64,000 bases of DNA. Source: an uncultured Chloroflexia bacterium. GTDB taxonomy: Bacteria > Chloroflexota > Anaerolineae > Anaerolineales > Villigracilaceae. Under the pieces are notes generated by a model. The model was given only the letters and a program-made list of their open reading frames with translations, did no database searches and was not told the DNA's origin. Location of the stretch: contig CAWJYP010000003.1 of the NCBI GenBank assembly GCA_963847105.1, forward strand, positions 558,409 to 622,408, written 5' to 3'. How positions within the stretch are numbered: the first letter of the stretch is position 1; every line of letters starts with the position of its first letter. Positions 8,801 to 53,217 of the stretch are shown piece after piece. Position numbers and translations under genes: made by a program.

Positions 8801-9600
8801 CTGCTCCGACAGCCAATCCCATCACTGGCAGCAGCATCGGTACGGATATCCTGATAGGCAATAATGGCTACGCTACCATGGTTGGGACTGTTGACAATAA
8901 TAGTATCGACGCCAATCATACGGTCGGCGGCGGTGCGGGCAACGGCATCGGCGGCGGCAACGGCGTGGCGGGAGCCGGTAATGCGTGGACGCCGGACCTG
9001 ACCTTGACCGTTACCAATAACACCATCACTGATACCGACGGAAACGGAATTCTGCTGGTAGGACGCGGCACGTCCGGAATCGCCCGGTATGGTATTCGCA
9101 ACAATACCGTAGCCGCTCCGCTTAGCGGTGTGCGCCCCGGTATCCGCGTAGATGCAGGCAATGCCTCATCGGCGGATGATTCTATTTGTCTCGACATCTC
9201 GGGTAATACCACTGCAGGAAGCGGCGGGCATGAGGGCATTGGCCTGCGCAAGCAAGGCACGAGCTCGACCGTGAACGATTTTGGCATTGAGGGCATGTCG
9301 GCAACGACCACCCCTGGCATCGAGACTTATGTTGGCAACACAGGCCTAAACCCGGGCTCGGCTAGTGGATCTTTTGGTGTCAGCGGAGTTCTGCTTATCT
9401 CTGCCACCAGTGGGTTTTCAAATTGCTCAACGACGGCAATGGCGCCAGACAATAACCAAACCCTGGCACAGGTCCAATCGGAACCCAACCCGGTTGTTCT
9501 TGCCGAATCCGCTCCTGTATCTGAGATCGACAAGAGCGTCAACGCCACAACGAGTGTCAATCAGATTCTCCAGGCAGGCCTCATGGATAGAGAAGAATGA
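5839..9600 (+). CDS. Giant membrane-anchored surface protein with a DUF11-like module, an Ig/cadherin-like module and a long right-handed beta-helix repeat region
   Basis: 1253 aa, with AGGAG 6 nt upstream of the ATG. N-terminal anchor: AISAWRVSVFLILALMAVLATYTIV. It also has ADPGETIEYTVVIPNNGPTDATGVTFND and GNFSYTPPAGFSGADHFDYMLTD. A Gly/Thr/Asn/Ser-rich body follows, with periodic NNTITNPGFGGINLVG, NNITSAGGTGIQVS, NNSISIDPTGANAIIVAN and NNTITDTDGNGILLVG. Confidence 0.8.
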   Translation: MPSSKRPNKSEQFMTRHAISAWRVSVFLILALMAVLATYTIVRAAVDIAPTKTDFIINDDGDGKADPGETIEYTVVIPNNGPTDATGVTFNDIIDLNTTFVDGSLNVSPLAGDDSYQTIGNTMLAVGVTPSTDTPAVIVINPATDSLFDNDTEFLGDTFTLKSVEADTTAPFTTATEQGGSVTVETDGNFSYTPPAGFSGADHFDYMLTDDELTGAGRVTINVTTERVWYVKNNAAPGGLGRSNDPFDTLLEAQTASSVNDTIYVFTGSGTTGQNTGIILKNGQRLLGEGVDLTVPVSVNGGPNPTNLRTAGTRPTIGNTTGDGVMVSTVSIGGSFSGVEIRGLDISVSGAGTNAVDVTTNSTFSGSFELADNVIGAAGVEGVDVNGGGSGTLTISLHDNTVTATGNGIDIVRSTAVGSVYIIAFDDNVVTGATGGIGINVTGSGWPVQFDSNTGTAAYDTVSGGTMVIGSSGAGNGVGNNGMVLSPIRGDLSFTDLDIYSDNGAALTITGTSSDFLASGTGTRLTVNTGTPSLVAVNGPALSTNLTNINIVPSTFSSTNSTSTGVSLIETSGTFTAPTGSSITNATGVDFFVNGNSISAATVSVTYPGTITDTSGRLVYIQNVTGASPTYAFSGAISGSGSTSTGVLLDNNDGATIRFSGGLALSTGSNTAFSAINGAAAVEVCDENPCNPAATGALVNTLTSTTGTALNVANSTIGVNNLEFKSIAANGAANGILLNVTGSTGGLVVKGDSGSSNNSSGGTIQSSTGDGISLTSTRNVSLDQMNIQSTGGSGINGTGVTNFAFTNGTIANAGNASFKSAIGFNGGAVSPGFGNNINGTLTVTGNTFTNPFYSAVEIQSDNGTVTVADISNNTITNPGFGGINLVGIGNVTTSFNLNRATINQNNITSAGGTGIQVSIGNSNTYGPGATAGSLATGSDIISITNNSISIDPTGANAIIVANSGGNNASRTKTNFLIQCNGKNSGGCSAPTANPITGSSIGTDILIGNNGYATMVGTVDNNSIDANHTVGGGAGNGIGGGNGVAGAGNAWTPDLTLTVTNNTITDTDGNGILLVGRGTSGIARYGIRNNTVAAPLSGVRPGIRVDAGNASSADDSICLDISGNTTAGSGGHEGIGLRKQGTSSTVNDFGIEGMSATTTPGIETYVGNTGLNPGSASGSFGVSGVLLISATSGFSNCSTTAMAPDNNQTLAQVQSEPNPVVLAESAPVSEIDKSVNATTSVNQILQAGLMDREE

Positions 9601-10246
9601 GGCGGTCGGCACTGCTCCCGTTACCCTTGATGCGGTATCACAGGAAGGCATGCCAAGCCAGTTACAGGTCCTCCTTGCGCCGGGGAAAACCCCCGAGAAC
9701 GTCCCTGTCTCGATTGGGACTTTACCTGCCGGCAAGAGCGTTACGATCAAGTACCGTGTAACAGTCGATAATCCCATGGATAATCCGGTGGGCGCATTGA
9801 GGATTTTAAACCAGGGGACTGTATCGGGTATCGGCTTCCCCAGTGTGACCACGACCGATCCTTCTCCAAATCCTGATACCGCCTGCCTTGGAGCGGGCAC
9901 TAAAACCTGTACGCCCATCGACCGGCCCGATACGACTGTCACATCGATAAACCTGGCTGGCAGCAGTCCTACGAATGTAGGTTCTGTATCCTGGACGGTC
10001 ACATATGCCTCTGCGGTGAATGGCCTGACAAGCAGTAATTTCAGCCTGATAAATATCGGATTGACCGGCACACCTGCCATTACCGATGTGAGTCCGGTAG
10101 GCGCAGTCCCGGCTACCACATGGGTGGTCACAGCCAGTGCCGGTAGCGGCGATGGCACGCTGGGCCTGAATATGGTCAACGACAGCGGTTTCTCGCATGA
10201 TACGACCAATTTACTCTTCACCGGCCAGGTATATGTGATCGATCAT

Positions 10247-10895
10247 ACTTCTCCCACGGTAACGATTAACCAGGCTATCGGGCAGGCCGATCCGACCAAT
10301 GACGGTACGATCAACTTCACGGCTGGTCTTCAGCGAAGCGGTCGCCGGTTTTGGAACAGGCGATGTTAGCCTGACGGGAACCGCCGGAGCGACCACCGGC
10401 AGCGTCACCGAGGTCGCGCCGATGGACGGCACCACCTATAACGTGGCTGTCAGCGGCATGACGATCAGCGGGTCTGTCATCGCCTCGGTGGACGTAGGCG
10501 TGGCCCAGGATGCGGCTACCAATCCCAATGACGCATCCACCAGCACCGATAACACGGTGGCTTATGACATTACCGCACCGACGGTGACGATCGACCAGGC
10601 CATCGGGCAGGCCGACCCGACCAACAGCGGCACGATCAACTTCACAGTGGTCTTCAACGAAGCGGTCGCCGGTTTTGGAACAAGCGATGTATCTCTGACG
10701 GGCACCGCCGGAGCGATCACCGGCACTGTCACCGAGGTCGCGCCGATGGACGGCACCACCTATAACGTGGCTGTCAGCGACATGAGCGGCAGCGGGACCG
10801 TGATCGCCTCAGTAGGCGCAGGCGTGGCGGAAGACACCGCCACCAACCCTAACGGTGCCTCCACCAGCACCGATGACACGGTGACTTATGACATT
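10247..10895 (+). repeat. Tandem pair of about 108-aa (about 324-nt) coding repeats (module A)
   Basis: Both copies contain near-identical DNA, for example gtcaccgaggtcgcgccgatggacggcaccacctataacgtggctgtcagcg at 10407-10458 and 10731-10782. A degenerate third copy lies at about 12001-12325. Confidence 0.8.
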
Positions 10896-11696
10896 AACGC
10901 ACCGAACTCCACCATCGACCCTCCCTTACCTGCCAACCCGACCGCCATCACCAGCGCCAGTTTCAGCTTCAGCGGAGACGATGGCAGCGGTAGCGGTGTA
11001 GCCGGTTTTGAATGCAGCCTGGACGGTGGTTTCTCAACCTGCACAAGCCCACAGAACTATGACAGCCTTGGCGATGGAAGCCACACTTTCCAGGTTCGCG
11101 CCATCGACGATGCCGGGAATATCGACCCCACCCCGGCCACTTACACCTGGGTGGTGGACGCGACCGCACCGAATACGACCATCACCAGCATCCCCGGAAA
11201 CCCAACGACCAGTACCGATGCACATATCATTTTCAACGGGGACGATGGTACTGGCACCGGTGTGGCAAGTTTCGAATGCGCTCTGGATGGAGGCTTCTCC
11301 GCCTGCACCAGCCCGCAGGACTTCAGCAGCCTCAGTAATGGCAGCCACACCTTCCGGGTACGCGCTATTGACAATGTCGGGAATACCGATGCCACACCTG
11401 CATCCTTTACCTGGGTGGTGGACACGATCGCACCTGATACGAGTATTATCGGCGGCCCAACCAACCCGACCAATGGCACTGTCGCCTCTTTCACCTTTGG
11501 CGGCAATGATGGTACCGGTACGGGAGTAGCCAGTTTCGAATGCGCTCTGGATGGCGGCTTCTCCGCCTGCACCAGCCCGCAGGCCTACAGCAGTCTCACC
11601 CCGGGCAGCCACACCTTCCAGGTGCGTGCCATCGACGTTGTTGGGAATACCGACGCCACTCCTGCGTCCTTTACCTGGGTGGTGGATACAACTGCC
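10896..11696 (+). repeat. Three tandem coding repeats of about 88-89 aa (module B)
   Basis: The unit xAPxTTIxxxPxNPTxxxxAxFxFxGDDGTGxGVAxFECxLDGGFSxCTSPQxxxSLxxGSHTFxVRAIDxxGNxDxTPAxxTWVVD occurs three times in a row. Confidence 0.8.
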
Positions 11697-13056
11697 CCGA
11701 CGGCGGTAATCACTTCCACTGCTCTGGATCCGACCAACACCTCGCCAATACCTGTTACGATCACTTTCAGCGAACCTGTCTACGGCTTTGGCTCCCTGGT
11801 GGCTGCTGATGACCTGGCAATTAGCAACGGCACGGCCAGCGACCTGATCTCGGGCAGCGATGGCGATACCGTCTACACATTCGCCATCACTCCTGTCGGG
11901 CAGGGCACAGTGAGCGTCTATCTGCAGACAGGTAGAGTACACGACCTGGCTGGGAACAACAATAGTGAGGTTTCCAACACCTTAAGTCGCAACTACAATT
12001 CGATCAAGCCCACCGTGACGATCGAACAGGGTGGAAGCCAGACCGATCCGACCAACTTTAGCCCGATCAACTTCACGGTGGTCTTTAGCGAACCCGTCAA
12101 CAATTTCGGCACCGGGGATGTGGATTTGAGCGCCAGCACTACGCTCGGAACTCTCAGCGGAATCGTATCTGAAGTTGCGCCAATGGATGGCACGACTTAC
12201 GATGTTTCCGTCAGCGGTATGAGCAGCACTGGGGCGGTTATCGCTGCCGTCCCGGCGGATGCAGCCTGGGACACTGCCGCCAACGGCAACGATGCCTCCA
12301 CAAGTGTCGATCATTCCGTCGCTTATACGGCGGCTGCGCCTGTTATCACTGAAGGCGCCAGTATCAGTATCACCATGTCGAAGAACGGCACCCCCATCCC
12401 CTTCGCCTTGACGCTGCACGCCACCGATGCCAATCTTGATCCGTTGACATGGAGCATCCTGACCCCGGCCGACTTCGGCACTGCCGATGTGGGAGCTAGC
12501 ACTGGGATCGTCTCATACACGCCATCACTCAATTACACCGGTCTGGACTCGTTCACGGTTCAGGTTTCAGACGGGTATGGCGGCACAGACAGTATCACCG
12601 TCAATGTGACCATCCAGGCTCCGGCGGTCATAACCAGCCCCAACAAAGTAACGTTCACGGTTGGCCATGTCGAATCCTTCACGATAACCACCACCGGCTT
12701 CCCGACCGGCGCGTCGATGTTGATCTCAGCGGTAGGCCCCCTGCCGGACTTTGTGACGTTCACGGATAACCATGATGGCACAGCAACTCTGGCCGGGGTT
12801 CCCATGGACGGCACCACTGGGACCTATCTAATAACGATAACTGCCGCCAATGGCGTGGGTTCAGTTGCCGTTCAGACCTTCAGCCTGAAGGTCTGGGAAA
12901 AGCCCATTTGGGAGATCTATCTTCCATTGTTGATTCGTTGAGCAGTGACCGCTCGCCAAATAGCAGATCGCCTGGACGGAAGGTATTGAGTAGGTCCGGG
13001 TCTTTCCAATCAATGCCCCGGGACGCAGATAACTTTCGGATCGCTTATTCCAAAAA

Positions 13057-29303: not shown

Positions 29304-30656
29304 ATGCCCGCTTCCGTTCAAGTTTTCCGCACTGCCAAAGACACCGGTGATCAACTCACGGAAAAAGAGCCGTTGACCTTTCGTGAAGAGACGGCCGACC
29401 TGCCTTCCGTTTTGGTGGACTCCCGCCCTCGCTTCCAGACAATCGAAGGTTTTGGCGGTTCTTTTACCGAGGCAGCGGCAGATACCTTTTACAAGTGTTC
29501 ACCTGAGACGCGGGCAGAGATCCTGCGGGCGTATTTCGATCCCAATTCCGGGAACGGATACACTCTCTGCCGTACTCATATCAACAGCTGCGATTTTTCG
29601 CTCGGTAATTATGCGTATACCGAGGTTCCCGGTGATGTGGACCTGGAGCACTTATCCATCGAACACGACCGCCGGCAGATGATCCCGTTGATCAAAGAGG
29701 CGGCTGCCGTGGCAGGTCAACCGATCAATCTGCTTGCCACGCCCTGGAGTCCGCCTGCCTGGATGAAAACCAACGGCGAAATGAACCACGGCGGCAAGGT
29801 GAAACCGGAGTACCGCCAGGCGTGGGCGCGTTATTACAGCCGCTTTGTGAAAGAATATCAGAAGGAAGGCCTGAAGATCTGGGGGTTGTCGGTCCAGAAT
29901 GAGCCGCTGGCGGTCCAGATCTGGGATTCTTGCATATACACCGGGGAAGAAGAGCGAGATTTTGTCCGCGACCACCTGGGACCGGAATTGGAAAAAGCCG
30001 GTCTGCTGAAGCAGATCAAGTTGTTGATCTGGGACCATAATCGTGACCTGCTGTATGAACGGGCTAAAGTTGTCTATGACGATCCCCAGGCCGCTCAATA
30101 TGTGTGGGGAGCCGCCTTTCACTGGTATGTGGGCGATAATTTTGAGAATGTGCGCTGGACCCATGAAGCTTTTCCGCATAAACAACTGCTGTTTACCGAA
30201 GGCTGCATGGAGGGCGGGCCGCATCTGAATAATTGGGAAGTGGGTGAGCGCTATGGGAAGTCCATGGTGGAAGACCTGAAGAACTGGACAGTCGGATGGA
30301 TCGATTGGAATATTCTGCTGGATCAGCATGGTGGGCCGAACCACAAGGATAATTACTGCAGCGCTCCCGTCATGGCAGATATCGGCAAAGGAAAGGTACA
30401 TTTCCAAAATTCCTATTATTATATCGGCCAGGTGACCCGCTTCGTCCGCCCCGGCGCTCAGCGGATCGTTAGTGCGAGCACGCTCGACGCCCTCGAAACA
30501 GTCGCCTTCCTGAATACGGATGGCCACATTGCGGTGGTAGTCCTGAACCGGAGCGATAAATCCGTGGATTTCTCTCTCAAATATAATGGTCTCTCTGCCC
30601 GGGCCGAGAGCCCGGCTCATTCGATGAGCACCTTCCGTTTCGCGAATGGGAGATAA
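29304..30656 (+). CDS. Glycoside hydrolase family 30 (glucosylceramidase-like) enzyme
   Basis: 450 aa. Motifs: FQTIEGFGGSFTEAAA, ATPWSPPAWMKTNG, GLSVQNEP, LLFTEGC. There is no signal peptide, so it is probably cytoplasmic. Confidence 0.8.
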   Translation: MPASVQVFRTAKDTGDQLTEKEPLTFREETADLPSVLVDSRPRFQTIEGFGGSFTEAAADTFYKCSPETRAEILRAYFDPNSGNGYTLCRTHINSCDFSLGNYAYTEVPGDVDLEHLSIEHDRRQMIPLIKEAAAVAGQPINLLATPWSPPAWMKTNGEMNHGGKVKPEYRQAWARYYSRFVKEYQKEGLKIWGLSVQNEPLAVQIWDSCIYTGEEERDFVRDHLGPELEKAGLLKQIKLLIWDHNRDLLYERAKVVYDDPQAAQYVWGAAFHWYVGDNFENVRWTHEAFPHKQLLFTEGCMEGGPHLNNWEVGERYGKSMVEDLKNWTVGWIDWNILLDQHGGPNHKDNYCSAPVMADIGKGKVHFQNSYYYIGQVTRFVRPGAQRIVSASTLDALETVAFLNTDGHIAVVVLNRSDKSVDFSLKYNGLSARAESPAHSMSTFRFANGR

Positions 30657-34945: not shown

Positions 34946-36007
34946 ATGGCAATCAACAGGATAAATATAATGGAAAATATCACAAATACATCGGTCGAAT
35001 CCAAGTATGCCGGCTGGCATGACATTGTGGTTCGTTATATCCACCCTGACCTGTGGCGCAGTATCTGGCAGATGGTCAATACACTTGTCCCGTATTTTGC
35101 TTTGTGGGCATTGATGCTGTACAGCGTTCATATTTCCTACTGGCTGACCCTGGCGCTGGCATTCCCAACGGCCGGATTCATGATGCGGTCATTCATCATT
35201 TTTCACGACTGCGGGCATGGGTCGTTCTTCAAGAGCCGTAAAGCCAATGATGCAGTGGGATTTATCACCGGGGTGATCAACTTCACTCCCTATTACAAAT
35301 GGCGGCGCGATCATGCCATCCACCACGCAACGGCCTCCGACCTGGATGGCCGCGGCGTGGGTGACGTGAAGACGATGACGGTCGAGGAATATCTGGCCGC
35401 GCCCTGGTGGAGAAAAACGTTCTATCGCATCTTTCGCAATCCGCTGGTGATGTTCACACTTGGATCCTTCTCGGTATTCGCCATTGTGGCACGCATCCCC
35501 GCCAAAAAGGATAAGGGTCGCGAGCTCCACAGCGTCTGGTATACCAATCTGGCCCTGGCCGTATTAATCACCGGTATGTGCCTGCTGGTGGGCTGGCAGA
35601 CATACCTGCTGGTGCAGTTGCCGGTGCTGATCCTGGGAACGTCGGTGGGGGTGTGGTTGTTCTACGTTCAGCACAACTTCGACCCGACTTATTGGGAGCG
35701 CCACAATAAGTGGGAGTTTGTGAAAGCCGGCTTCGAGGGAAGCTCGTACTATAAACTGCCTCGCATCTTTCAGTGGTTTTCGGGCAATATCGGCTTTCAC
35801 CACATCCATCACCTGAACCCAAAGATCCCGAATTACAAATTGCCGGAGTGCTACCATGAAAATCCGGTCTTCCACGTGCCGCCGATGACCTTCGCCGCCA
35901 GCCTGAGTTCTTTGAATATGCGGCTCTATGACGAAAAGAGGAAGATGATGGTGAGCTGGAGAGGCCTGAGATTGTACCGCACCAACCGGAGATCGCAAAC
36001 GGCGTGA
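34946..36007 (+). CDS. Membrane fatty-acid desaturase
   Basis: It has the three histidine boxes HDCGHGSFF, HAIHHA and HHIHHL. It is polytopic. The start could be 34970. Confidence 0.85.
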   Translation: MAINRINIMENITNTSVESKYAGWHDIVVRYIHPDLWRSIWQMVNTLVPYFALWALMLYSVHISYWLTLALAFPTAGFMMRSFIIFHDCGHGSFFKSRKANDAVGFITGVINFTPYYKWRRDHAIHHATASDLDGRGVGDVKTMTVEEYLAAPWWRKTFYRIFRNPLVMFTLGSFSVFAIVARIPAKKDKGRELHSVWYTNLALAVLITGMCLLVGWQTYLLVQLPVLILGTSVGVWLFYVQHNFDPTYWERHNKWEFVKAGFEGSSYYKLPRIFQWFSGNIGFHHIHHLNPKIPNYKLPECYHENPVFHVPPMTFAASLSSLNMRLYDEKRKMMVSWRGLRLYRTNRRSQTA

Positions 36008-42254: not shown

Positions 42255-42980
42255 TCAATGAGTTTCATTGGAGGCTGTGTGGCTAACTGACCTGGTTTTT
42301 CGGCGAAAACCAAGTTGAAACCATTCCCACCATGGACTGATCTCAACATGCACTACTCCAGCCCCCTTAAGGAGCGCCGTGAATTCATCAGGCGAGCGCA
42401 GTCTCATATCATAGCCCCATTTCTTTGTGCAGCAAGAAGTGAGCAGGATGCCACCCGGGCGGAGGACGCGCGCTAATTCTTTGATGGTCAGGTCGATATT
42501 GGGGATCAGTTCGATAAACTCCAGGCAGCTCACCACGGTGAAGGTGTTGTCGGGAAATGGCAGGGGAATGGCGGGCTGGTTCAACAATTCCATCCGGCCG
42601 GCGTGCCCTGCCAGATTCTCGTTGGCTCGCTGCAGCATGCCCAGGGAGATATCCACCCCGATGGCGCGACCACTGAACTCAGGCTGTTGGAAGAGGGTGC
42701 AGGGAAAGCGACCCGTCCCTGTGGCTACATCCAGGACGAGGACCTCGGCGAGGTCAACGCGCCGGTCTCTCAGCTTGCTTAGCAGCGGCTGGATCAAAGA
42801 TTCTTCATCCTTGGATTGGCTTTTCTTCTTGTCTGTGTCATATTTGGCCGCCCAGCGATTGTACAGCCATCCCTGGACCTTTGGTCCCAGGTGAACGCCG
42901 TCGAAATAATAGATCTCCCGTTCAAGGGCGTAGACGATTATGAGGATAACGATGACGGCGATAATCAACCAGATGGGCAT
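42255..42980 (-). CDS. Membrane-anchored class I SAM-dependent methyltransferase
   Basis: ATG at 42980 (MPIWLIIAVIVILIIVYAL, a TM segment). Motif I: VLDVATGTGRF. Confidence 0.75.
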   Translation of the reverse strand: MPIWLIIAVIVILIIVYALEREIYYFDGVHLGPKVQGWLYNRWAAKYDTDKKKSQSKDEESLIQPLLSKLRDRRVDLAEVLVLDVATGTGRFPCTLFQQPEFSGRAIGVDISLGMLQRANENLAGHAGRMELLNQPAIPLPFPDNTFTVVSCLEFIELIPNIDLTIKELARVLRPGGILLTSCCTKKWGYDMRLRSPDEFTALLKGAGVVHVEISPWWEWFQLGFRRKTRSVSHTASNETH

Positions 42981-43169
42981 GTTGGTTATTCTCCAAAGAG
43001 GTATACCACAGCGGCAAGAACTATGCTTCGATCCCCTCATTAACGATGACTATGTATGAGGTAATTCTGGCAGATTAATCGCTCATGCCATCCGGATGTT
43101 TGGTTGTTGAAAGTGTTATTCCGACTCCCGCGTTCACCAATCTGGATGTACCCCCTTGTCAAAGAGATT

Positions 43170-43685
43170 TTATTGGAAATTTTCTACTCGTTCGTATTCT
43201 TCCAAATAATTCGAAAGGCTCTTGAGCGCTCTCATTTGCAGGGCCCGGACGGAACCAGGCTGTTTCCCCATCTTTTGTGCGATCTCTTCCGTGGTCAAAT
43301 CATCGATGAATTTCCATACCACCACTTGCTGTTGGTCGGGGGTAAGTTTCTTTAGTGACATGATGAGAAATTCAACTTCATTATTACTCTCACAGACGGT
43401 TGCCGGGTCGGCCTCATCGCTTACGTATTTGTCGACTTCGTCGATGGGCTCAACCTCTTTATATGTCCTGCGATCATCGATGACAGCATTCCGCGCGATT
43501 GCGTACAGCCAACTTAGCGGAGGTGCGCCTGTATCTATATAGGTAAATCGCTTCTCCCATGCTCTCAAGAATACCTGTGAGGTGATATCTTCCGCTTGCT
43601 TTTCGTCTGCCAGTCTGTAATTGATGTAATGTTGGATACGTTGCGCATAGGTTTCATACAACGTGGTAAATTGATCCATCGGCAT
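43170..43685 (-). CDS. ECF-type sigma-70 family sigma factor
   Basis: I chose ATG at 43685. Region 2: HYINYRLADEKQAEDITSQVFLRAW. Region 4: LTPDQQQVVVWKFIDDLTTEEIAQKMGKQPGSVRALQMRAL. The ORF is open up to 43973, so a longer N-terminus is possible. Confidence 0.75.
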   Translation of the reverse strand: MPMDQFTTLYETYAQRIQHYINYRLADEKQAEDITSQVFLRAWEKRFTYIDTGAPPLSWLYAIARNAVIDDRRTYKEVEPIDEVDKYVSDEADPATVCESNNEVEFLIMSLKKLTPDQQQVVVWKFIDDLTTEEIAQKMGKQPGSVRALQMRALKSLSNYLEEYERVENFQ

Positions 43686-43992
43686 ACTTCTGGTTCTTTG
43701 CTGACCCTTCTGCTCATGTAGGTCCAGTCTGGCAGGTGGAGGCAAAATAGTTGTCCGGAGGTAATTCGGTTTTTGCAGCATCTGATATACCTCTACAAGT
43801 GGTGCCGGATAATGTAGGGTTACTATATTTCCTTCTGGCCTTCTTTTCCATTGGGGCTTTACCCAAAATGGCTTACGGGATTCCCCCACCTCCCATTTCA
43901 TAATTACTTCCTTGGTGTTGGCGAAAATAATAGGCTGCCCTGAAAGAGGGCAGCCTATTTGTGCAAAAAGCATGCTTGTGGAGACTTACAGG

Positions 43993-44517
43993 CTACATTC
44001 TTGCGCTGCCTGTGCTCATATCACTGCCTTCCATGGAAGCCCTGACGTTGATGCTGGTTTCAGCCAGTCTGGTGAGGCGGGCATCCGTTTCTTTTTCCTC
44101 CTCCAGCGTCTGGCCCAAGATATTGGCAGTGTTGTTATACCCCAATTGGCGCGCATGCGTCCGAGCCGTTCCATAAGCAGCTATTTCATAATGTTCCGCC
44201 CTTTGTGCTGCGCCGATCAATGCAGCGTTGAGAGAGTTGGGGGAAGCGTCGGCTTTCATCACTTCAGCGCCTTCCTTGACGATCCCTTCCATACCCATAC
44301 ATTTCTTGCCATTTGGGTTGACTTTCAACTGATCGCAGATTTCCTCGATACGATCTGCATGGGTACGGGTTTGTTCCAAATGCTCTTCAAAGGCAATTCG
44401 GAGGTCCCCATCTGCTGCTTTGGCAAATTTTGGCAAGGCTTTGATCAGTTGTTGTTCGATGCTGTAAATGTCCTTCAATTCATCTGTTAAAACATCCTCA
44501 AGGTTCTGTATTTTCAT
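43993..44517 (-). CDS. Ferritin-like YciE/DUF892 family stress protein
   Basis: ATG at 44517. Sequence: LTDELKDIYSIEQQLIKALPKFAKAA...FEEHLEQTRTHADRIEEI...AQRAEHYEIAAYGTA. Confidence 0.75.
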   Translation of the reverse strand: MKIQNLEDVLTDELKDIYSIEQQLIKALPKFAKAADGDLRIAFEEHLEQTRTHADRIEEICDQLKVNPNGKKCMGMEGIVKEGAEVMKADASPNSLNAALIGAAQRAEHYEIAAYGTARTHARQLGYNNTANILGQTLEEEKETDARLTRLAETSINVRASMEGSDMSTGSARM

Positions 44518-44573
44518 GGAGGCGTCCTTTCGTATAGGTATCTGAAGCCCGATAGGTGCTTTCCTTACAATAT

Positions 44574-44828
44574 TTATCCACGCACCATGCCGGGATGGAT
44601 GAGGTGCAGGATCCACACCAGAACAACACCGCCTAAGGCGGCTACTACAATCTGCCCCAGCCAGCTCGTGACTGCGAGACCGAATAAACTCGCCAGCCAG
44701 CCTCCGATCAGCCCACCAATGAGGCCGACAACAAGATCGCCCAAGAGGCCATACCCGGCGCCCCGAACGAGCATCCCCGCCAGCCAACCGGCGATGATAC
44801 CGCTTATGATCCAGATTAATATTGACAT
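44574..44828 (-). CDS. GlsB/YeaQ/YmgE (transglycosylase-associated) family small membrane protein
   Basis: 84 aa. Sequence: IIAGWLAGMLVRGAGYGLLGDLVVGLIGGLIGGWL. Confidence 0.8.
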   Translation of the reverse strand: MSILIWIISGIIAGWLAGMLVRGAGYGLLGDLVVGLIGGLIGGWLASLFGLAVTSWLGQIVVAALGGVVLVWILHLIHPGMVRG

Positions 44829-45074
44829 TATTTTCTCCTTTTCCTTTGGTTATGCGGCTGATATAACTTTCCATAAGCTGCCATGCATTCCTATTGGTCA
44901 GAATGCATCTTCCACATATTTAAACGAATTTGCTCCTGATTTGTTACGTTATGGGTACAATGGTGTTATTGTTCATTGGTTCATCAGTTTCAAATTTCGT
45001 TGCGCGTAGTCGACTTTTAGTCTTTGACCTACTGCTAAAAATATTTACTTCCTAAAAACACGAAGGAGCCCACA

Positions 45075-45914
45075 TTGGCAAAGAACTCACATTGGCAGGG
45101 AAAAGTGGCCCTCATTACCGGCGGATCCAATGGGATCGGCCTGGCGGCGGCGAAAATCATGGCTGCTGCCGGTGCGCATGTGTGGCTGGCGGCTCGGCGT
45201 ATCGAGATCCTCGAAAGTGCATTCAAAGAGGTCGTAGGCGCGTGCCCATCCAGCGAACAATGCTGTGGGTTTATCCCTACCGATGTATCTGACTCGAAGC
45301 AGGCAACCCATGCGGTCGAGGTGGTCACTGAATCTGTTGGTGTACCGGATGTAATCATCAACTCTGCCGGGATAACCCAGCCCGGTTATGTGCAGGATCT
45401 TTCCCTGGATGTGTTCGAGGCCATGATGAAGGTCAATTACTTTGGGACCGTCTATGTGAACGCGGCGGTCCTGCCCGCCATGATCAAGCGTGGTTCCGGT
45501 CATATCATTAATATCTCCTCCATGGCTGGTTACCTGGGCGTCTTTGGGTATAGCGCCTACGGAGCCAGCAAGTTCGCCGTTACGGGTTACTCGGAGGCGC
45601 TGCGGGCGGAAATGAAGCCGCACGGCGTACGGGTTTCAGTAGTGTTCCCACCCGATACCGATACTGCGCAACTGGCCTATGAAACGCCTTTCAAGCCAGC
45701 CGAGACCAAAGCCATTTCTGGTAACGCCAAAGCGCTTTCTGCCGAGAAGGTGGCGGGTGACATGCTCAGGCAAGCTGCCAAAGGAAAATATCTCATTTTC
45801 CCCGGCACGGATTCGCGCTTGTTCTACATAGCCACCACCAAATTGCCAAAGAGCCTTGTCTTTGCCGTTTTGGATATGATGGCTGCTTCCGGTCGAAAAT
45901 CCAAATCATCCTGA
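45075..45914 (+). CDS. SDR family oxidoreductase resembling 3-ketodihydrosphingosine (3-dehydrosphinganine) reductase
   Basis: TTG start 6 nt after AAGGAG. Motifs: GKVALITGGSNGIG, NSAG and YSAYGASKFAV. The distinctive VVFPPDTDTAQLAYETPFKPAETKAISG aligns with eukaryotic KDSR [26 protein letters not shown] as I recall it. Confidence 0.7.
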   Translation: MAKNSHWQGKVALITGGSNGIGLAAAKIMAAAGAHVWLAARRIEILESAFKEVVGACPSSEQCCGFIPTDVSDSKQATHAVEVVTESVGVPDVIINSAGITQPGYVQDLSLDVFEAMMKVNYFGTVYVNAAVLPAMIKRGSGHIINISSMAGYLGVFGYSAYGASKFAVTGYSEALRAEMKPHGVRVSVVFPPDTDTAQLAYETPFKPAETKAISGNAKALSAEKVAGDMLRQAAKGKYLIFPGTDSRLFYIATTKLPKSLVFAVLDMMAASGRKSKSS

Positions 45915-46007
45915 TCGTCACTTGCCTAAGGTTATAATTGAGATGCTTGGCATCCTTCCAACAAGGATGCCTTGAAATACTATTCCCAGAAATTACTCGG
46001 AGGAGAG

Positions 46008-47190
46008 ATGGACATCTTTGAAAAGTGTTCCAGATTCACGGCAGCGAAGGAAGCTATCGCGGCGGGGTTGTATCCTTACTTTATCCCATTGGAGAAAAAC
46101 GAAGGCACCGAAGCGGTCTTCAAGGGTCGTCGCCTGATCATGTGCGGATCGAATAACTACCTCGGCCTGACAACTCATCCGCAGGTCCGCCAGGCTGCTC
46201 TGGACGCCATCAATCAGTACGGCACCTCTTGTACCGGTTCGCGTTTCCTTAACGGTACCATTGAACTGCATGAGCAGCTGGAGAAGGAACTGGCCGAATG
46301 GGTCGGCAAGGAAGCCGCCTTGGTCTTCTCGACCGGCATGCAGACCAACCTGGGTGTGATCAGTGCGATTGTCTCCCGGGATGATGTGGTCATCCTCGAC
46401 AAGCAGGATCATGCCTCCATTGTCGACGGGGCGAAACTAAGCTGGGGAAAGACCGTCCGTTTTCGCCACAATGATATGGCAGATCTTGAGCGGGTTTTAT
46501 GTCTGGTGGGCGATGGTCCTGGAAAACTGGTGGTGGTGGACGGTATTTACAGTATGGAAGGGAGATATCGCGCCTCTTCCTGAGATCATCATGTTGTGCA
46601 AGAAATACGGGGCCAGGTTGATGGTCGATGATGCCCATGCCGCCGGTGTGCTCGGCGGTGGGCGGGGAACGGCCGCCCATTTCAATGTCACTAAAGATGT
46701 GGACCTGATCATGTCCACCTTCAGCAAATCCTTCGCTTCACTGGGCGGTTACATTGCCGGTGATGCAGATATCATCCACTTCATCAAGCATAACGCCCGT
46801 TCGCTCATCTTCAGTGCCAGCATCCCGCCAGCCAATGCCGCCGCAGCCCTGGCAGCCTTGCACGTGATGCAAGCGGAACCCGAACGGGTACAGAGGCTAA
46901 CGGATATTGCCTCCCATATGCGGACAGAATATCGGCGAATGGGCTTCGACATCGGAAAATCCGAGACGCCTGTCATCCCCATCCTCATCGGCGACGACAC
47001 GCGTACTTTGACCATCTGGAAGACCCTCTTCGAGGCGGGCATCTTCGTCAACCCGGTCATCTCGCCAGCCGTCCCGGAAGGGCATCAACTCATGCGGACT
47101 AGTTACATGGCCACCCATACCGATGAACAGATGGCGCGCGTCCTGGAGACTTTCGCCACGGTCGGTAAAGCGGTGGGGCTGATATCATAG
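46008..47190 (+). pseudogene. Alpha-oxoamine synthase resembling serine palmitoyltransferase, with one frameshift at about 46560-46563
   Basis: Fragment 1 ends ...KLVVVDGIYSMEG|RYRASS*. The other frame continues GDIAPLPEIIMLCKKYGARLMVDDAHAAGVLG...STFSKS (PLP lysine). Removing one base from gaaggg-a-gatatc restores SMEGDIAPL. The N-terminus GSNNYLGL...GSRFLNGT and the C-terminus HTDEQMARVLETFATVGKAVGLIS are collinear with Sphingomonas SPT as I recall it. Confidence 0.75.
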
Positions 47191-47192
47191 AA

Positions 47193-47435
47193 TTAACCGG
47201 CGGGGATTGCTACGACCTGGCGCAACCAGGAAGCCGGGCTCGGAATGATATTCACAACGCCTACCCGGCGGCGGACTTTGCCATGCAGCCTCTCCACGCC
47301 ATTGGTGGTACGGATCAAACGCCGATGGGCAGCTGGGAACAAGAAATCCGTCAGTCCTTTCGGGCTGTTCACAGCCGCCCTTTCGGCCAAGCGGGGGGTG
47401 ATTTTCCGGACCTTCTCAATCCCTTTCTCCAGTTA
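47193..47435 (-). mobile_element. C-terminal remnant of an IS256-family (Mutator-type) transposase
   Basis: An 80-codon open stretch reads LEKGIEKVRKITPRLAERAAVNSPKGLTDFLFPAAHRRLIRTTNGVERLHGKVRRRVGVVNIIPSPASWLRQVV. It carries the family signature FP...I.TTN.(I/V)ER(L)... It is preceded by an in-frame TAA, and no N-terminal or catalytic part is present. Confidence 0.65.
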
Positions 47436-48906: not shown

Positions 48907-51827
48907 TTAGTATTTATTCTCCATCTGCGGGGGGAATAATTCTTGCATTTCTTCATTACTCAAACCAAAGAAAGACTGTAAGTGTTTTTTCTCTATCTCT
49001 GGCTTTTCTATAATACTTTGCCGCACCCATCCTACATGTAGTTCCCAGGGACCCCAATTATGGGGCCATCGCGCAACATTCCTTGGCATTTCAGATTTAA
49101 TTTCTGCGATCATAGAATCGTAAATGGGTAGTAAGCGCGTTGGATTAAAATAAGTACTTGTGTACAAAGCGTAACGCCTAATAAATTCTCTTTTAAATTG
49201 ATCATTCCTCAATAAATTCACCTGCAGCGTTGTATCGATCCAGCGGCCAGCACCCATGCCATCCGGATTAAAAATTTGCTCGGAGAGATTATTCCATGTA
49301 TACGTCCCATGAAATAGCGCCCAGTCCATATCGTAAAGAACCCAGCGCCACTTACCGCCATTCTGATCGCGCCAAATCTGGATATTCCCTAAATCCGTAT
49401 TTCCAAAATAACTTTCAATAATTAACCAATCAAGATAATTATCCACATCAATTTGAGAGGTCACATACTCATAATATTCCTGGTTTTGCATATCATGAGT
49501 TGCAACATATTCAACCAAGGCTTTATAAGCATCTTCACTGCCAGCCATTGCAGTGCCATTCCAAACAAGGACATCCACTTGATCCGGATCCACACCATAA
49601 TGACTTGCTAAATAATCTTCATTCACTTTTTCGCGAATGTTATAAAGCCCCCAATATTCCCCGTTGATATACACCACGCAAGGTCTTGAATCCATGACAT
49701 CAATATCAAGCACATCACTGACAACTCTATGAATAAATGCATCTTTGATCTTGGTCATATTTTGATCTTGCCCGGAGGTGCGTAGCAAGAAATGCTTGAA
49801 AGAAGTCACTTCATTTCCATCAAAAAGAGGATAATTGATTTCCTCGAGTGCCATACTCATTTCTCAAGCGAATTGCAAATGATTTTTGCGGCATCGCCTG
49901 ACTAAAGTTCCCCGCAATTTCAATTCCGGCATCAAAAGACAATGCCAGCCCATCGGTTTCATAAAACTCAATATGCACAGGTCGCTCGATATCATTAAAC
50001 GGATATGCATAAATACCCGCGCCTCCAAACAAATTCTCAGACTCCGTTGATAAAGCAATAATAGGCAGATCATGCTCCACACCGACAATGTACGTTTGGG
50101 TTGTCACGATCGAAGGTAGTTGTCCATCGGCTATTGCGATAGCTCGAACTGTCCTGGATGAATCTAACACAATTGGACTTCCATAAAAAATATCTGATGA
50201 TGTAGGTAATGACCCATCCAACGTAAAAAAAATCGCCGCCCCTTCTTCTGCAGTAAGCGTCAACGACTGCTCACTTGAAATTTCGCCACCATTAAGCGAG
50301 AATTTAACAGGGGCCGAATATCGATTTACAGCAATTGTAGAATTGATTTCCCCTGGTGTTGGTCTGTCAAAATAAACTCTTTCTCCATTTTCATTCAAAC
50401 CACTTGATGCGTTCTTTTCAAGGAGGCCTGTTTCATAAATCTGCGGCTCATCACAATCAACATCGCAAAGATACAGCGTCTCTCCAGAAGCACTGATAGA
50501 AAATGGCACGTAATTCCTTGTGCCATTTCCATCAACTTCTGCATCCACATAAAAAACAGCGAAACCGTTCGCAGGAAGAACATAATCCGAAAAAACAAAT
50601 CTTGTTTGCTGGTCCGAGCCCTTGCTGAGGGAATATCCTTGTAGATTAATGTCTTGGTCTGTATTATTCTTCAGCTCAATCCAATCATAAAAGTTACCAT
50701 TGGCATCAGTTAAAAATGAATTCATTCTTCGTCATCACCTCATTGATAAGAACATCCCATATCTTGCTTGAAGGTTTCAACTCGTCCGTAAAGCCATGTG
50801 TGCTGTTTTCTTCTCCTGGCGTAGGCTCAGAAAAATAAACCCATTCACCACTCTTAACTCCTCTTGAAATATCTTCTGACAAAGGATCGATCGTTAGTTC
50901 AACCAGTACTTCTCTATATTGATTGGAAATCACCAACGTCTCATAATCAGATAAACGGAAATTTGTATGCACATTTATTGTAACTTTGTCTTTTCCAGAA
51001 GCATAAATAACTAAATAAGATCTTGGCTCAATGACTATATTGGGAAACGCCCATTTTCGCAGATTCGTTTTATTGTCTGTAAAATATAGATGGTCAAGCG
51101 AAAATGGCTCATCGCTATCATTATAAAGTTCAACCCAATCAACAAAATCGCCATCCTCATCATAGAGCACAGATCGATTATCGGTCATATATTCAGTAAT
51201 CATTAAAGGAGAATCAGTAATACCGTTAAAATCCGCTGTCTCCTGTCCGTCCGTGCCATTTTTTTCATTGGGTGTTGGATGATTAAAATAAAGCCATTTA
51301 CCTTCTTCGTTCATCCCATAAGATATATCTGTATTCAACGGTGGAATTTCAATGGAAGACATCAACGTACCGAGAGCAGATGTAAAATATAGTGTTTCGC
51401 CAAGTTCGGCATTTAATTTAAAATTTGAATGCAAATTCCCAGAGTCGTCCAATGTGTCCAGGCCCGATGCATAAACAATCTTATATTGATTCGGACCGAT
51501 CTCAAAATCTGGAAATTTCCACATCAAAGGATCATCAATATTTGTAGATAGCCCCGCACTTTTAAGGTTAATGACCTCATCACCCGAATTATAGAATTCT
51601 ATCCAATCTGAACTTAAACCAAACCCATCCAATATGGTCAACGAATTGGATGACATCACTTCAGTAATAATAATCTTTGACTGTCTCTGGAAAATTACAT
51701 TTTGGTTTTCTATTTCCAATTGCTTCAGTTCTAATTCAACTGCAATTCTCTTTTCAACGGCAACCATTGCAAACACGAATCCGGCAATTAATCCGAATCC
51801 AATCAGTACAATTAAGAATCCTGGCAA
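48907..51827 (-). pseudogene. Large CotH kinase family protein with N-terminal TM anchor and lamin-tail-like domains, carrying two frameshifts (about 50720 and about 49849)
   Basis: ORFs 50706..51827, 49820..50725 and 48907..49860 overlap end to end. The joins read ...VLINEVMTKNE|SFLTDANGNFYDWIELKN... and ...KSFAIRLRNEYG|LEEINYPLFDGNEVTSFKHFLLRTSGQD... The LTD-like motifs (INEVM..N...DWIELYN) recur three times. The C-terminal part has YINGEYWGLYNIREK. Confidence 0.75.
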
Positions 51828-51857: not shown

Positions 51858-52526
51858 CTAGACAGCAAAATCACCATCATAACCAAGCAGCGCAACGGAA
51901 TTCACATTAGTAATTCCCCCAATTTTATTTACGAGACTGGCTGTCTTTTTTCTTTCTCTGATCTCAACAGTCAATTCATAATTTTCACCATTAAAAACTT
52001 TTGATTTCAATCGATATCTATTTGCTTCTCTCTCAATGAGCTTGAATACCAGATCATTCGTTTCTTCTGTCTTATAGGAGATCACCAACAAATATGGCGT
52101 TTTCACATCTGATATTTTGGAAAATACAAACAAAATGATTCCAATTAATACAGAAGATATCAACGCTAACATCCAAAGCCCCGCGCCACTTATGATACCC
52201 ATGCCAATTGCCCAAAATAAATAAGCGATATCAATCGGATCTTTGATAGCAGTACGGAATCGAACAATGGATAAGGCGCCCACCATACCCAGGGATAAAA
52301 TGATATTACTCGAGATAGCCAGGATGATGGATGAAGTAATCATAGACATGGCAATCAATGTCACATTAAATGTCTTTGAATACATCACGCCTTTATAACT
52401 TACTCGATAGATAAAAAAGACGAACAAGCCTAACACAAATGAAAAAAGCAGCGTGTATGCAATTGACATCACGGATAGTTCAGCCGTAAAAAAATCTGTG
52501 TTCTTGATAAAATCTTCCCAGGTCAT
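51858..52526 (-). CDS. DUF4956 family membrane protein
   Basis: 222 aa. The sequence LSLGMVGALSIVRFRTAIKDPIDIAYLFWAIGMGIISGAG matches my recollection of DUF4956. It sits 30 nt upstream of the CotH gene and 16 nt downstream of the VTC gene. Confidence 0.75.
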   Translation of the reverse strand: MTWEDFIKNTDFFTAELSVMSIAYTLLFSFVLGLFVFFIYRVSYKGVMYSKTFNVTLIAMSMITSSIILAISSNIILSLGMVGALSIVRFRTAIKDPIDIAYLFWAIGMGIISGAGLWMLALISSVLIGIILFVFSKISDVKTPYLLVISYKTEETNDLVFKLIEREANRYRLKSKVFNGENYELTVEIRERKKTASLVNKIGGITNVNSVALLGYDGDFAV

Positions 52527-52542: not shown

Positions 52543-53217
52543 CTACATGCCAACAACATAGCACTTAGCGTATTTTGAAATGGATTGCCGCTGAAGGTTA
52601 TTTATTTGGATCATATTTCGGATCACATCAGGGAAATATCCTGTATATTTCACTTCAAGAATAATTTGATCATGTGGAATTGCTGAGATCATATACCCAT
52701 TGGAGAACAAATCTTTTTGGAAAACTCCTGCCTTAAGTAAAGAATCAAATGTAATTCGAACATCTCCATATTTATAGATGAGCGCTTCACGACGATATTC
52801 TACAACTACCCTTGGGCGTAAGCTCCTGGTTTGATAATTAAGATAAAAGTCTTTAGCAACAACATTATCCTTCTGCCGCAAAATACTTACGTCACCACTA
52901 ATAAGAGTGTCGTATTCTTCCTTTGAGATTCGAATATGTGATTTTTCAGTAACAATCTCTCTTTTGATTTTTCTTTCCAGTTTGATGGCATTAGGTTGAT
53001 GATTGTAAACACAAATCCTGAATTTCTTTCGTTCTCTTACCCCATTCACCTTATCAAAGAATGCACATTGATTGTAGTCATCAAAATATAAACTTGTGAC
53101 CAAATATCCCCCATCTGCATTACTAAAAGAATCCCGCTGACATATATTACTCAATTTATTTGCCATCACATTTTTTTGATGGGCATTGATAAAAAACTTT
53201 AATTCGTTTCTATACAT
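52543..53217 (-). CDS. VTC domain (polyphosphate polymerase-like, triphosphate tunnel) protein
   Basis: 224 aa. Sequence: MYRNELKFFI...YLVTSLYFDD...RKKFRICVY...IKLERKIK...EVKY, an alternating basic/hydrophobic beta-strand pattern typical of bacterial VTC-domain proteins. Confidence 0.7.
   Translation of the reverse strand: MYRNELKFFINAHQKNVMANKLSNICQRDSFSNADGGYLVTSLYFDDYNQCAFFDKVNGVRERKKFRICVYNHQPNAIKLERKIKREIVTEKSHIRISKEEYDTLISGDVSILRQKDNVVAKDFYLNYQTRSLRPRVVVEYRREALIYKYGDVRITFDSLLKAGVFQKDLFSNGYMISAIPHDQIILEVKYTGYFPDVIRNMIQINNLQRQSISKYAKCYVVGM

Follow-up and report, generated by a model that had tools for sequence, protein, structure and literature searches.

The locus and its genes

We analysed a 64,000-nt stretch of contig CAWJYP010000003.1 from an uncultured Anaerolineales bacterium (the whole stretch is called the window below) and focused on two adjacent genes on its plus strand. 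The upstream gene encodes a short-chain dehydrogenase/reductase (SDR) similar to eukaryotic 3-ketodihydrosphingosine reductase (KDSR), and the downstream gene encodes an alpha-oxoamine synthase (AOS) similar to serine palmitoyltransferase (SPT). A preliminary description of this DNA had put the two forward as a candidate sphingoid-base module, and the present work follows up on that proposal. The coordinates of the features are collected in Table 1.

Table 1. Features of the SDR–AOS locus, followed by other genes of the window (ORF, open reading frame; PLP, pyridoxal 5'-phosphate; ECF, extracytoplasmic function).
Feature	Position	Strand	Remarks
Shine-Dalgarno-like GAAGGAG	45062–45068	+	6 nt 5' of the SDR TTG start; read from sequence
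KDSR-like classical SDR, 279 aa, TTG start	45075–45914	+	ORF, Pfam, alignment to human KDSR, fold model
SDR–AOS spacer, 93 nt	45915–46007	+	Exact if AOS starts at ATG 46008
Shine-Dalgarno sequence GGAGGAG of AOS	45999–46005	+	Read from sequence
SPT-like AOS, 5' part, residues 1–185, frame A	46008–46562	+	ORF, motifs, NCBIfam, PDB match
One extra base (GGGA) in AOS	46560–46563	+	26/26 aligned relatives read GGN GAT
SPT-like AOS, 3' part, residues 186–393, frame B	46564–47190	+	PLP lysine K240 in TFSKS, D207, H210
Terminator-like stem-loop, possible operon end	47379–47398	+	~190 nt 3' of the AOS stop; consensus match only
GH30, endo-1,6-beta-glucanase-like	29304–30656		Beside ABC sugar permeases, sugar-transport cluster
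Fatty-acid desaturase, Bacillus DesA-type delta-5 acyl-lipid	34946–36007		426 bits vs cut-off of 500
Divergent methyltransferase	42255–43040		
ECF-type sigma factor	43170–43973		In the ~2-kb extra stretch 5' of SDR
DUF892 protein ORF	43993–44874		In the ~2-kb extra stretch 5' of SDR
Small glycine-rich membrane ORF	44574–44828		Within the DUF892 ORF, other frame

A KDSR-like reductase

The SDR protein matched the Pfam family adh_short with 177 bits and has the classical SDR set, comprising a TGxxxGxG motif, the N-S-Y-K catalytic residues and a basic residue to bind the 2'-phosphate of NADPH. The corresponding positions are TGGSNGIG (residues 15–22), R41/R42, NSAG (96–99) and the catalytic S149, Y162 and K166; across 37 members of the family, T15–G22, R41/R42, N121, S149, Y162 and K166 were invariant or nearly so. 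An AlphaFold model gave a confident SDR fold (pLDDT of 89.5). The unusual segment singled out in the preliminary description was recovered as PPDTDT...KPAET (residues 192–211), with the longer pattern PPDTDTPG...KP.ET..IS spanning residues 192–215. The segment FPPDTDTAQLAYETPFKPAETKAIS was found in the ORF at 45075–45914, and PP[DN]T[DN]T was present in 108 out of 120 Anaerolineales SDR homologues. A sigma-70-type promoter was not found 5' of the SDR gene.

The collinearity with the eukaryotic enzyme noted earlier was borne out by alignment with human KDSR (NP_002026.1, identity confirmed by an exact look-up): the two proteins are collinear, with 38% identity over 243 aa (E 2e-54). Both are classical NADPH-type SDRs, the catalytic Y/K register of the window SDR equals human Y186/K190, and the C-terminal PPDTDT..KP.ET..IS is common to both, so the match reaches past the Rossmann core. 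We scored the SDR against KDSR and FabG, as had been suggested, and phmmer gave 165.6 bits with human KDSR and 79.8 with E. coli FabG; among ~500 SDRs of known structure, the highest score was 119.4. When human KDSR was itself compared with the solved structures, its top relative, fungal TSC10, reached only 104 bits; the window SDR is thus nearer to human KDSR (KDSR/FVT1, EC 1.1.1.102) than the fungal enzyme is. The top NCBIfam model was PRK06181 for both the window SDR and human KDSR.

A search of 1.84 billion protein representatives with the SDR returned 791 clusters at E ≤ 1e-30, and the top 150 relatives included an oomycete (Pythium) KDSR and cyanobacterial SDRs. Neighbour-joining (NJ) analysis supported a common KDSR-like SDR family at 73–77%, with supports inside this family of only 2–25%, so that no sister group can be claimed for the eukaryotic KDSRs. 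Homologues of the SDR carry the automatic label 3-dehydrosphinganine reductase in IMG and SDR family oxidoreductase at NCBI. As judged by these comparisons, the SDR is a KDSR family member that lacks the membrane anchor, and not a generic FabG-like enzyme.

An SPT-like alpha-oxoamine synthase

The AOS start codon (ATG 46008) follows GGAGGAG and agrees with all homologues, which begin with MDIFEKC. The motifs quoted in the preliminary description, GSNNYLGL, GSRFLNGT, STFSKS and the HT..Q...AVGLIS tail, were all read in the sequence, and Pfam assigned the protein to Aminotran_1_2 (fold-type I PLP enzymes). All AOS comparisons use a repaired 393-aa protein with one base deleted at 46560–46563. 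This protein aligned end to end, at 81–87% identity, with more than 100 intact proteins of 392–393 aa from Anaerolineales metagenome bins, and the nearest homologues of SDR and AOS alike came from Anaerolineales or Chloroflexota metagenome-assembled genomes (MAGs).

Among the PDB sequences, the AOS scored 432 bits against the SPT of Sphingobacterium multivorum (SmSPT; PDB 3A2B/8GUH), to which it is 50% identical over 384 residues; both are soluble homodimer-type AOS proteins of ~395 aa. Two sphingomonad SPTs gave 291 and 275 bits, KBL and BioF at most 283, two cysteate acyltransferase structures (7U7H, 28EH) 252–262, 5-aminolevulinate synthase ~205 and CqsA 140. Out of 21 active-site residues defined from crystal structures of SmSPT with serine (PMC10196870), 18 are kept in the AOS, including H138, D210, H213, T241, S243, K244, N52 and S81, with AOS K240, H135, D207 and H210 aligning to SmSPT K244, H138, D210 and H213. 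The AOS departs from the SmSPT active site at A79T, F114M and M271I, of which F114 and M271 are main-chain contacts in SmSPT.

The top NCBIfam model for the AOS was SPT-CFB (NF047600), with 537.7 bits; on the same model, a Parabacteroides SPT scored 684, and the Spt-like proteins of Aureispira and Rubrobacter scored 487 and 444 bits. The bioF model TIGR00858 gave 390.2 bits against a cut-off of 426.45. Since the genuine Parabacteroides (Bacteroidota) SPT also reached 390 on this model, the bioF score of the AOS represents family background. On two KBL models the AOS scored 357.6 (cut-off 460) and 295.9 (cut-off 493).

The preliminary description had argued that the AOS resembles bacterial SPT more than BioF and had called for a phylogeny. 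We built an NJ tree with 100 bootstraps from BioF sequences of bioA-bioF-bioD operons, KBL sequences of tdh-kbl pairs, SmSPT and SpSPT (943 bits with 2JG2); the comparison of the AOS with HemA and CqsA was by score only, outside the tree. The window AOS fell into the SPT clade with 99% bootstrap support, and the context-validated BioF and KBL sequences remained outside it, in agreement with the earlier expectation. Within the SPT clade it belonged to an Anaerolineales clade (100%), sister to an Spt-like gene of Aureispira, a member of the Bacteroidota (100%), and grouped with SmSPT and the Parabacteroides SPT at 84%. By these comparisons, the AOS is an SPT-like alpha-oxoamine synthase.

A further SPT-like AOS was seen in an unexpected Bacillota host, on Priestia megaterium plasmid NZ_CP137804.1 (locus L065, 6001–7215). 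It is 52% identical to that of the window, scores 525 bits on SPT-CFB and adjoins a methyltransferase gene and an acyltransferase-family gene.

Conserved pairing of the two genes

The spacing of 93 nt given in the preliminary description proved exact. No intrinsic terminator was found between SDR and AOS, so the two genes are probably co-transcribed. The spacer contains a perfect 9-bp hairpin, GGCATCCTT-CCAAC-AAGGATGCC (45949–45971), with no T-tail; as spacer length ranges from ~20 to 300 nt among relatives, this hairpin is probably not conserved. An Rfam scan of 43–49 kb returned no match.

The pairing was followed in a locus scan that took one genome per species and covered 57 loci, including an Anaerolineales subset of 31 loci with an SDR identity of at least 50%. 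In 28 of these 31, SDR is followed by AOS on the same strand after a gap of ~20–300 nt; in one more locus an AOS is found on the other strand at a distance of ~3 kb, and another locus stops at the contig edge. The AOS aligned in one piece in nearly all of the 28 paired loci and is intact at 392–393 aa in ~25 relatives. The closest relative, whose SDR is 93% identical, carries an intact 393-aa AOS 95 nt downstream. Clustering of the flanking ORFs revealed no conserved neighbour besides the pair itself. Recurrence of the pair in 28/31 related loci argues that the adjacency is not due to chance. The earlier statement that such a pair is uncommon in bacteria therefore stands for characterised bacteria but not for Anaerolineales, where it is the rule.

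Related genes are also joined in other arrangements. A natural AOS–SDR fusion of 744 aa (AOS at residues 13–399, KDSR-like SDR at 468–731) is encoded on ENA ERZ27262661 contig k141_1170764 (locus L064, 2991–5225), with the order reversed relative to the window operon. In Nostoc sp. JBALFH010000045.1 (locus L074, 2724–6828), a gene for a 1094-aa fatty-acyl-AMP ligase (FAAL)/carrier protein/AOS overlaps the start of a KDSR-like SDR gene by 8 nt; this SDR scores 203 bits against human KDSR, more than the window SDR. Its equivalent in an Elainellaceae MAG (locus L075) sits in a polyketide synthase (PKS) cluster.

A separate observation concerns a Spirochaetota-labelled MAG (CAWCLF010000001.1; locus L043, 10001–10786), whose SDR is 59% identical to that of the window and lies inside the Anaerolineales clade with 100% bootstrap support. 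No AOS was found within 10 kb of it, and the SDR could be a product of transfer or of mis-binning.

The frame break in the AOS gene

The single frame break reported earlier at a GGG/A position was located between the two AOS frames listed in Table 1. At ATGGAAGG[G]AGATATC, the window is one base longer than all 26 aligned relatives, and removal of one base at GAA GG[G] A GAT restores the 393-aa ORF. Mean identity to 120 AOS homologues was 83.5% after the break and 85.0% before it. Apparent indels were also seen in a CotH-kinase-like gene on the minus strand (48907–51827), which encodes lamin-tail, CHB_HEX_C and Fn3-associated domains and is divided among three overlapping ORFs (50706–51827, 49820–50725 and 48907–49860). 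Its domains run on across both frame changes, which gives two more apparent single-base indels 2–4 kb from the AOS. Because the break is unique among the 26 relatives, the closest relative is intact, the downstream part is equally conserved and the CotH-like gene shows two such indels, the break is likely an indel error of the assembly consensus and not a genuine loss. A programmed frameshift was ruled out, as the extra base occurs in none of the 26 relatives.

Predicted pathway and alternative explanations

We propose that the SDR and AOS form a bicistronic long-chain-base module making sphinganine, and we put the probability of this reading at about two in three; the SPT and KDSR roles, together with the substrates, cofactor, product and order of steps, are predicted from homology. 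In the first step, the PLP-dependent AOS would act as an SPT, forming 3-ketodihydrosphingosine (3-KDS) by condensation of L-serine and a long-chain acyl thioester. The acyl donor is probably acyl-CoA, because no acyl carrier protein (ACP) gene is linked to the pair. In the second step, the SDR would use NADPH to reduce the 3-keto group of 3-KDS, yielding sphinganine. The pathway would thus follow a eukaryote-like order, with reduction first and acylation later, and the N-acylation and head-group steps would be encoded elsewhere in the genome. A tblastn search with Aureispira and Rubrobacter queries (E ≤ 1e-4) found no bCerS-like or CerR-like homologues in the 64-kb window or within 10 kb in 43 loci. 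When a search was seeded with the Aureispira GNAT protein, the top 120 matches were Bacteroidota-like or unnamed.

Several points weigh against the sphinganine module. Its function is a prediction, in this organism as well as in the pair-bearing relatives, and the AOS frame is interrupted as assembled. Neither the window nor the 43 flanking regions yielded a ceramide synthase candidate. On the reductase side, eukaryotic KDSR is a membrane protein of the endoplasmic reticulum, and the alignment shows that the window SDR has no N-terminal hydrophobic leader and is missing the ~20-residue C-terminal hydrophobic insert of the eukaryotic KDSRs. A Foldseek search with the SDR model placed HSD17B13, 11beta-HSD1 and FabG among the top ranks and TSC10 outside the top 50, although fold comparison does not tell SDRs apart. 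On the synthase side, the AOS is below the NCBIfam SPT equivalog cut-offs: 537.7 vs 640 for NF047600, 409.9 vs 500 for NF047599 and 339.9 vs 670 for NF047603. The Spt-like proteins of Aureispira and Rubrobacter, whose genes lie in bCerS/CerR-like clusters, fall below the NF047600 cut-off as well. SmSPT is also the best characterised match (39% identity) of a cyanobacterial BioF, which makes no 3-KDS (PMC8895605), so a best match to SmSPT is not proof of SPT function. Amino-acid specificity cannot be read from sequence, and A79 of SmSPT is T in the AOS.

The last points leave some room for a different product, such as a capnine-type sulfonolipid base, an alanine- or glycine-derived 1-deoxy base or an amino alcohol of secondary metabolism. 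The chemistry of an AOS plus an SDR is generic, SDRs that reduce 3-ketocapnine are known (PMC11211663), and the cyanobacterial KDSR-like SDRs described above adjoin an FAAL-ACP-AOS gene or lie in a PKS cluster; the substitution at the substrate-pocket residue A79 and the scores under the SPT equivalog cut-offs point in the same direction. We nevertheless consider another 2-amino-3-hydroxy lipid unlikely, given that the AOS is far nearer to SPT than to either solved cysteate acyltransferase, belongs to the SPT clade and conserves the serine-contacting N52, S81, H138 and S243, and that in none of the loci does a gene for cysteate synthase, PKS, FAAL or ACP adjoin the pair. It is far less probable still that the AOS is a BioF or KBL and the SDR an unrelated neighbour or an aminoacetone/threonine-type dehydrogenase. 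JGI/IMG does name the AOS homologues 8-amino-7-oxononanoate synthase, an aminopropanol dehydrogenase appears among the structural matches of the SDR, tdh-kbl is a known pairing of a dehydrogenase with an AOS, and the AOS reaches 390 bits on the bioF model, whose cut-off is 426. However, that bioF score is no higher than that of a true Bacteroidota SPT, the KBL scores fall well short of their cut-offs, and the operon-validated BioF and KBL references lie outside the 99% SPT clade. The partner of the AOS is a KDSR-like classical SDR and not Tdh, and neither bio genes (bioA, bioD, bioW) nor tdh were found near the pair in any locus.

The remaining alternative is that the insertion in the AOS is real, so that no SPT is made and the SDR is left orphaned or decaying. 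The frame break does stand in the sequence as given, and the AOS is also broken in two relatives (L001 and L008). Against a pseudogene remnant, L008 stems from a long-contig MAG project of the same kind, the lesion is a single one with no extra stops after it, conservation hardly drops across the break, the SDR is intact, as is the closest relative, and the two apparent one-base frameshifts in the neighbouring CotH-like gene suggest assembly indel errors. We regard a decayed locus as improbable, although it is the most serious of these competitors to the sphinganine module.

Other genes of the window

The preliminary description had mentioned a GH30 gene and a membrane desaturase elsewhere in the window and had rightly treated their link to the pair as weak. 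Both are present, and a link is ruled out by their assignments (Table 1) and by the unrelated genes in between. The methyltransferase at 42255–43040 was likewise considered and rejected as a partner: it is kept only in the closest relative, is absent from the 43 loci and resembles the methyltransferases encoded near other Spt genes only in a generic way. The context genes thus support no sphingolipid island.

On the contig of the closest relative, the methyltransferase gene lies directly 5' of the SDR, and the window has ~2 kb extra at this place (43170–44874). Between 48000 and 54000, GC content falls to 0.38–0.46, compared with ~0.54 elsewhere; this stretch contains the CotH-like gene, a DUF4956 protein (51858–52526) and a VTC-domain protein (52543–53217) and may be a horizontally acquired island. 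Three large overlapping plus-strand ORFs at 5839–12941 (1253, 334 and 880 aa), with domains of the bacterial Ig-like and cadherin-like types, may represent one giant adhesin broken by frameshifts.

Comparison with known systems

The Caulobacter-type pathway (Spt, bCerS, CerR), whose genes are often clustered, also starts with an Spt homologous to the window AOS. There, acylation by bCerS is followed by reduction by CerR, an extended, epimerase-like SDR, whereas the window reductase is a classical SDR of the KDSR type; the earlier remark that the partner differs from CerR is thereby upheld. In Bacteroides thetaiotaomicron, BT_0972 is likewise a bacterial SDR and has been put forward as the enzyme that converts 3-KDS into sphinganine, but its identity to Tsc10/FVT1 is only ~16–30% and its gene is unlinked to spt (PMC9278070). 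The window SDR is not a member of this Bacteroides KdsR family (NCBIfam NF049977), scoring 126 bits against a cut-off of 400, and human KDSR itself scores 110. The proposed mechanism differs both from bCerS-then-CerR in Caulobacter and from the unlinked, distant BT_0972 (PMC9278070, PMC11087976). Bacteroidota-type spt genes either have no reductase gene linked to them or have CerR-like and GNAT bCerS-like genes on their flanks, in contrast to the window AOS with its KDSR-type SDR. In the course of the searches, we saw the flanked arrangement on Aureispira anguillae plasmid pAUEa (locus L069, 2744–6573) and on Rubrobacter radiotolerans plasmid 1 (locus L066, 5908–9275), where an Spt-like gene stands between a gene for a ~380-aa GNAT-type, bCerS-like protein and one for an epimerase-like, CerR-like NAD(P) oxidoreductase. 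The sister position of the Aureispira gene to the Anaerolineales clade hints at an inter-phylum transfer of spt without its partners.

Another known combination of an AOS with an SDR is the sulfonolipid module, in which a cysteate-C-fatty acyltransferase is followed by an SDR that reduces the 3-keto amino product (PMC11211663, PMC9304779). The window AOS is far nearer to SPT than to this acyltransferase (432 vs 262 bits), and the 3-ketocapnine reductases share 21–27% identity with Tsc10 and are encoded apart from their AOS. Taken together, the known bacterial 3-KDS and 3-ketocapnine reductases are 16–30% identical to the eukaryotic enzymes and not clustered with an AOS (PMC9278070, PMC11211663). 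The window SDR in turn differs from eukaryotic KDSR in being bacterial and operon-encoded.

The 3-keto reductase of bacterial sphingolipid synthesis is not settled: CerR of Caulobacter acts after acylation, and the Bacteroides candidate BT_0972 is only distantly related to KDSR, has no linkage to spt and is unproven in vivo. A KDSR-family reductase in an operon with Spt, found in ~28 species-level Anaerolineales genomes and accompanied by a natural fusion, offers a concrete candidate and turns this question into a simple co-expression experiment in E. coli. More tentatively, and with clearly less confidence than we place in the module itself, Anaerolineales and perhaps other Chloroflexota might possess a third bacterial sphingolipid route in eukaryotic order, in which a soluble Spt and an operon-linked, anchor-less KDSR produce free sphinganine that is then acylated by an acyltransferase not of the bCerS type. 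If so, eukaryotic KDSR would be part of a broad bacterial family of amino-ketone reductases repeatedly partnered with alpha-oxoamine synthases, and the reductase would serve as a genomic marker for the abundant sphingolipid producers among sedimentary Chloroflexota.

Papers of 2024–2025 described Spt-like genes of Chloroflexota and found that ceramides correlate with Anaerolineae (PMC11334938, PMC12619533). In the Black Sea, 218 Chloroflexota MAGs carry Spt-like genes, and it was proposed that they produce sphingolipids (Ding et al. 2024, PMC11334938); ceramides and glycosyl-ceramides correlate with Anaerolineae (PMC11334938). These proteins come from the same phylum and class (Anaerolineae) as the window and probably belong to the same Spt-like family as its AOS. 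Only bCerS and CerR were sought in those studies, and many Spt-like genes were not co-localised with them (PMC11334938, PMC12619533); the authors raised the question of whether non-homologous enzymes stand in for bCerS and CerR (PMC11334938). The Black Sea study makes no mention of a KDSR-type reductase or of a two-gene operon (PMC11334938), and our literature search found no paper tying 3-dehydrosphinganine reductase to Chloroflexota. The operon described here would sharpen the attribution of sedimentary ceramides to this phylum and bears on the origin of the eukaryotic KDSR family. Compared with the Spt-like genes of Chloroflexota and the IMG label of the reductase, which were already known, the new part is the operonic KDSR-type partner.

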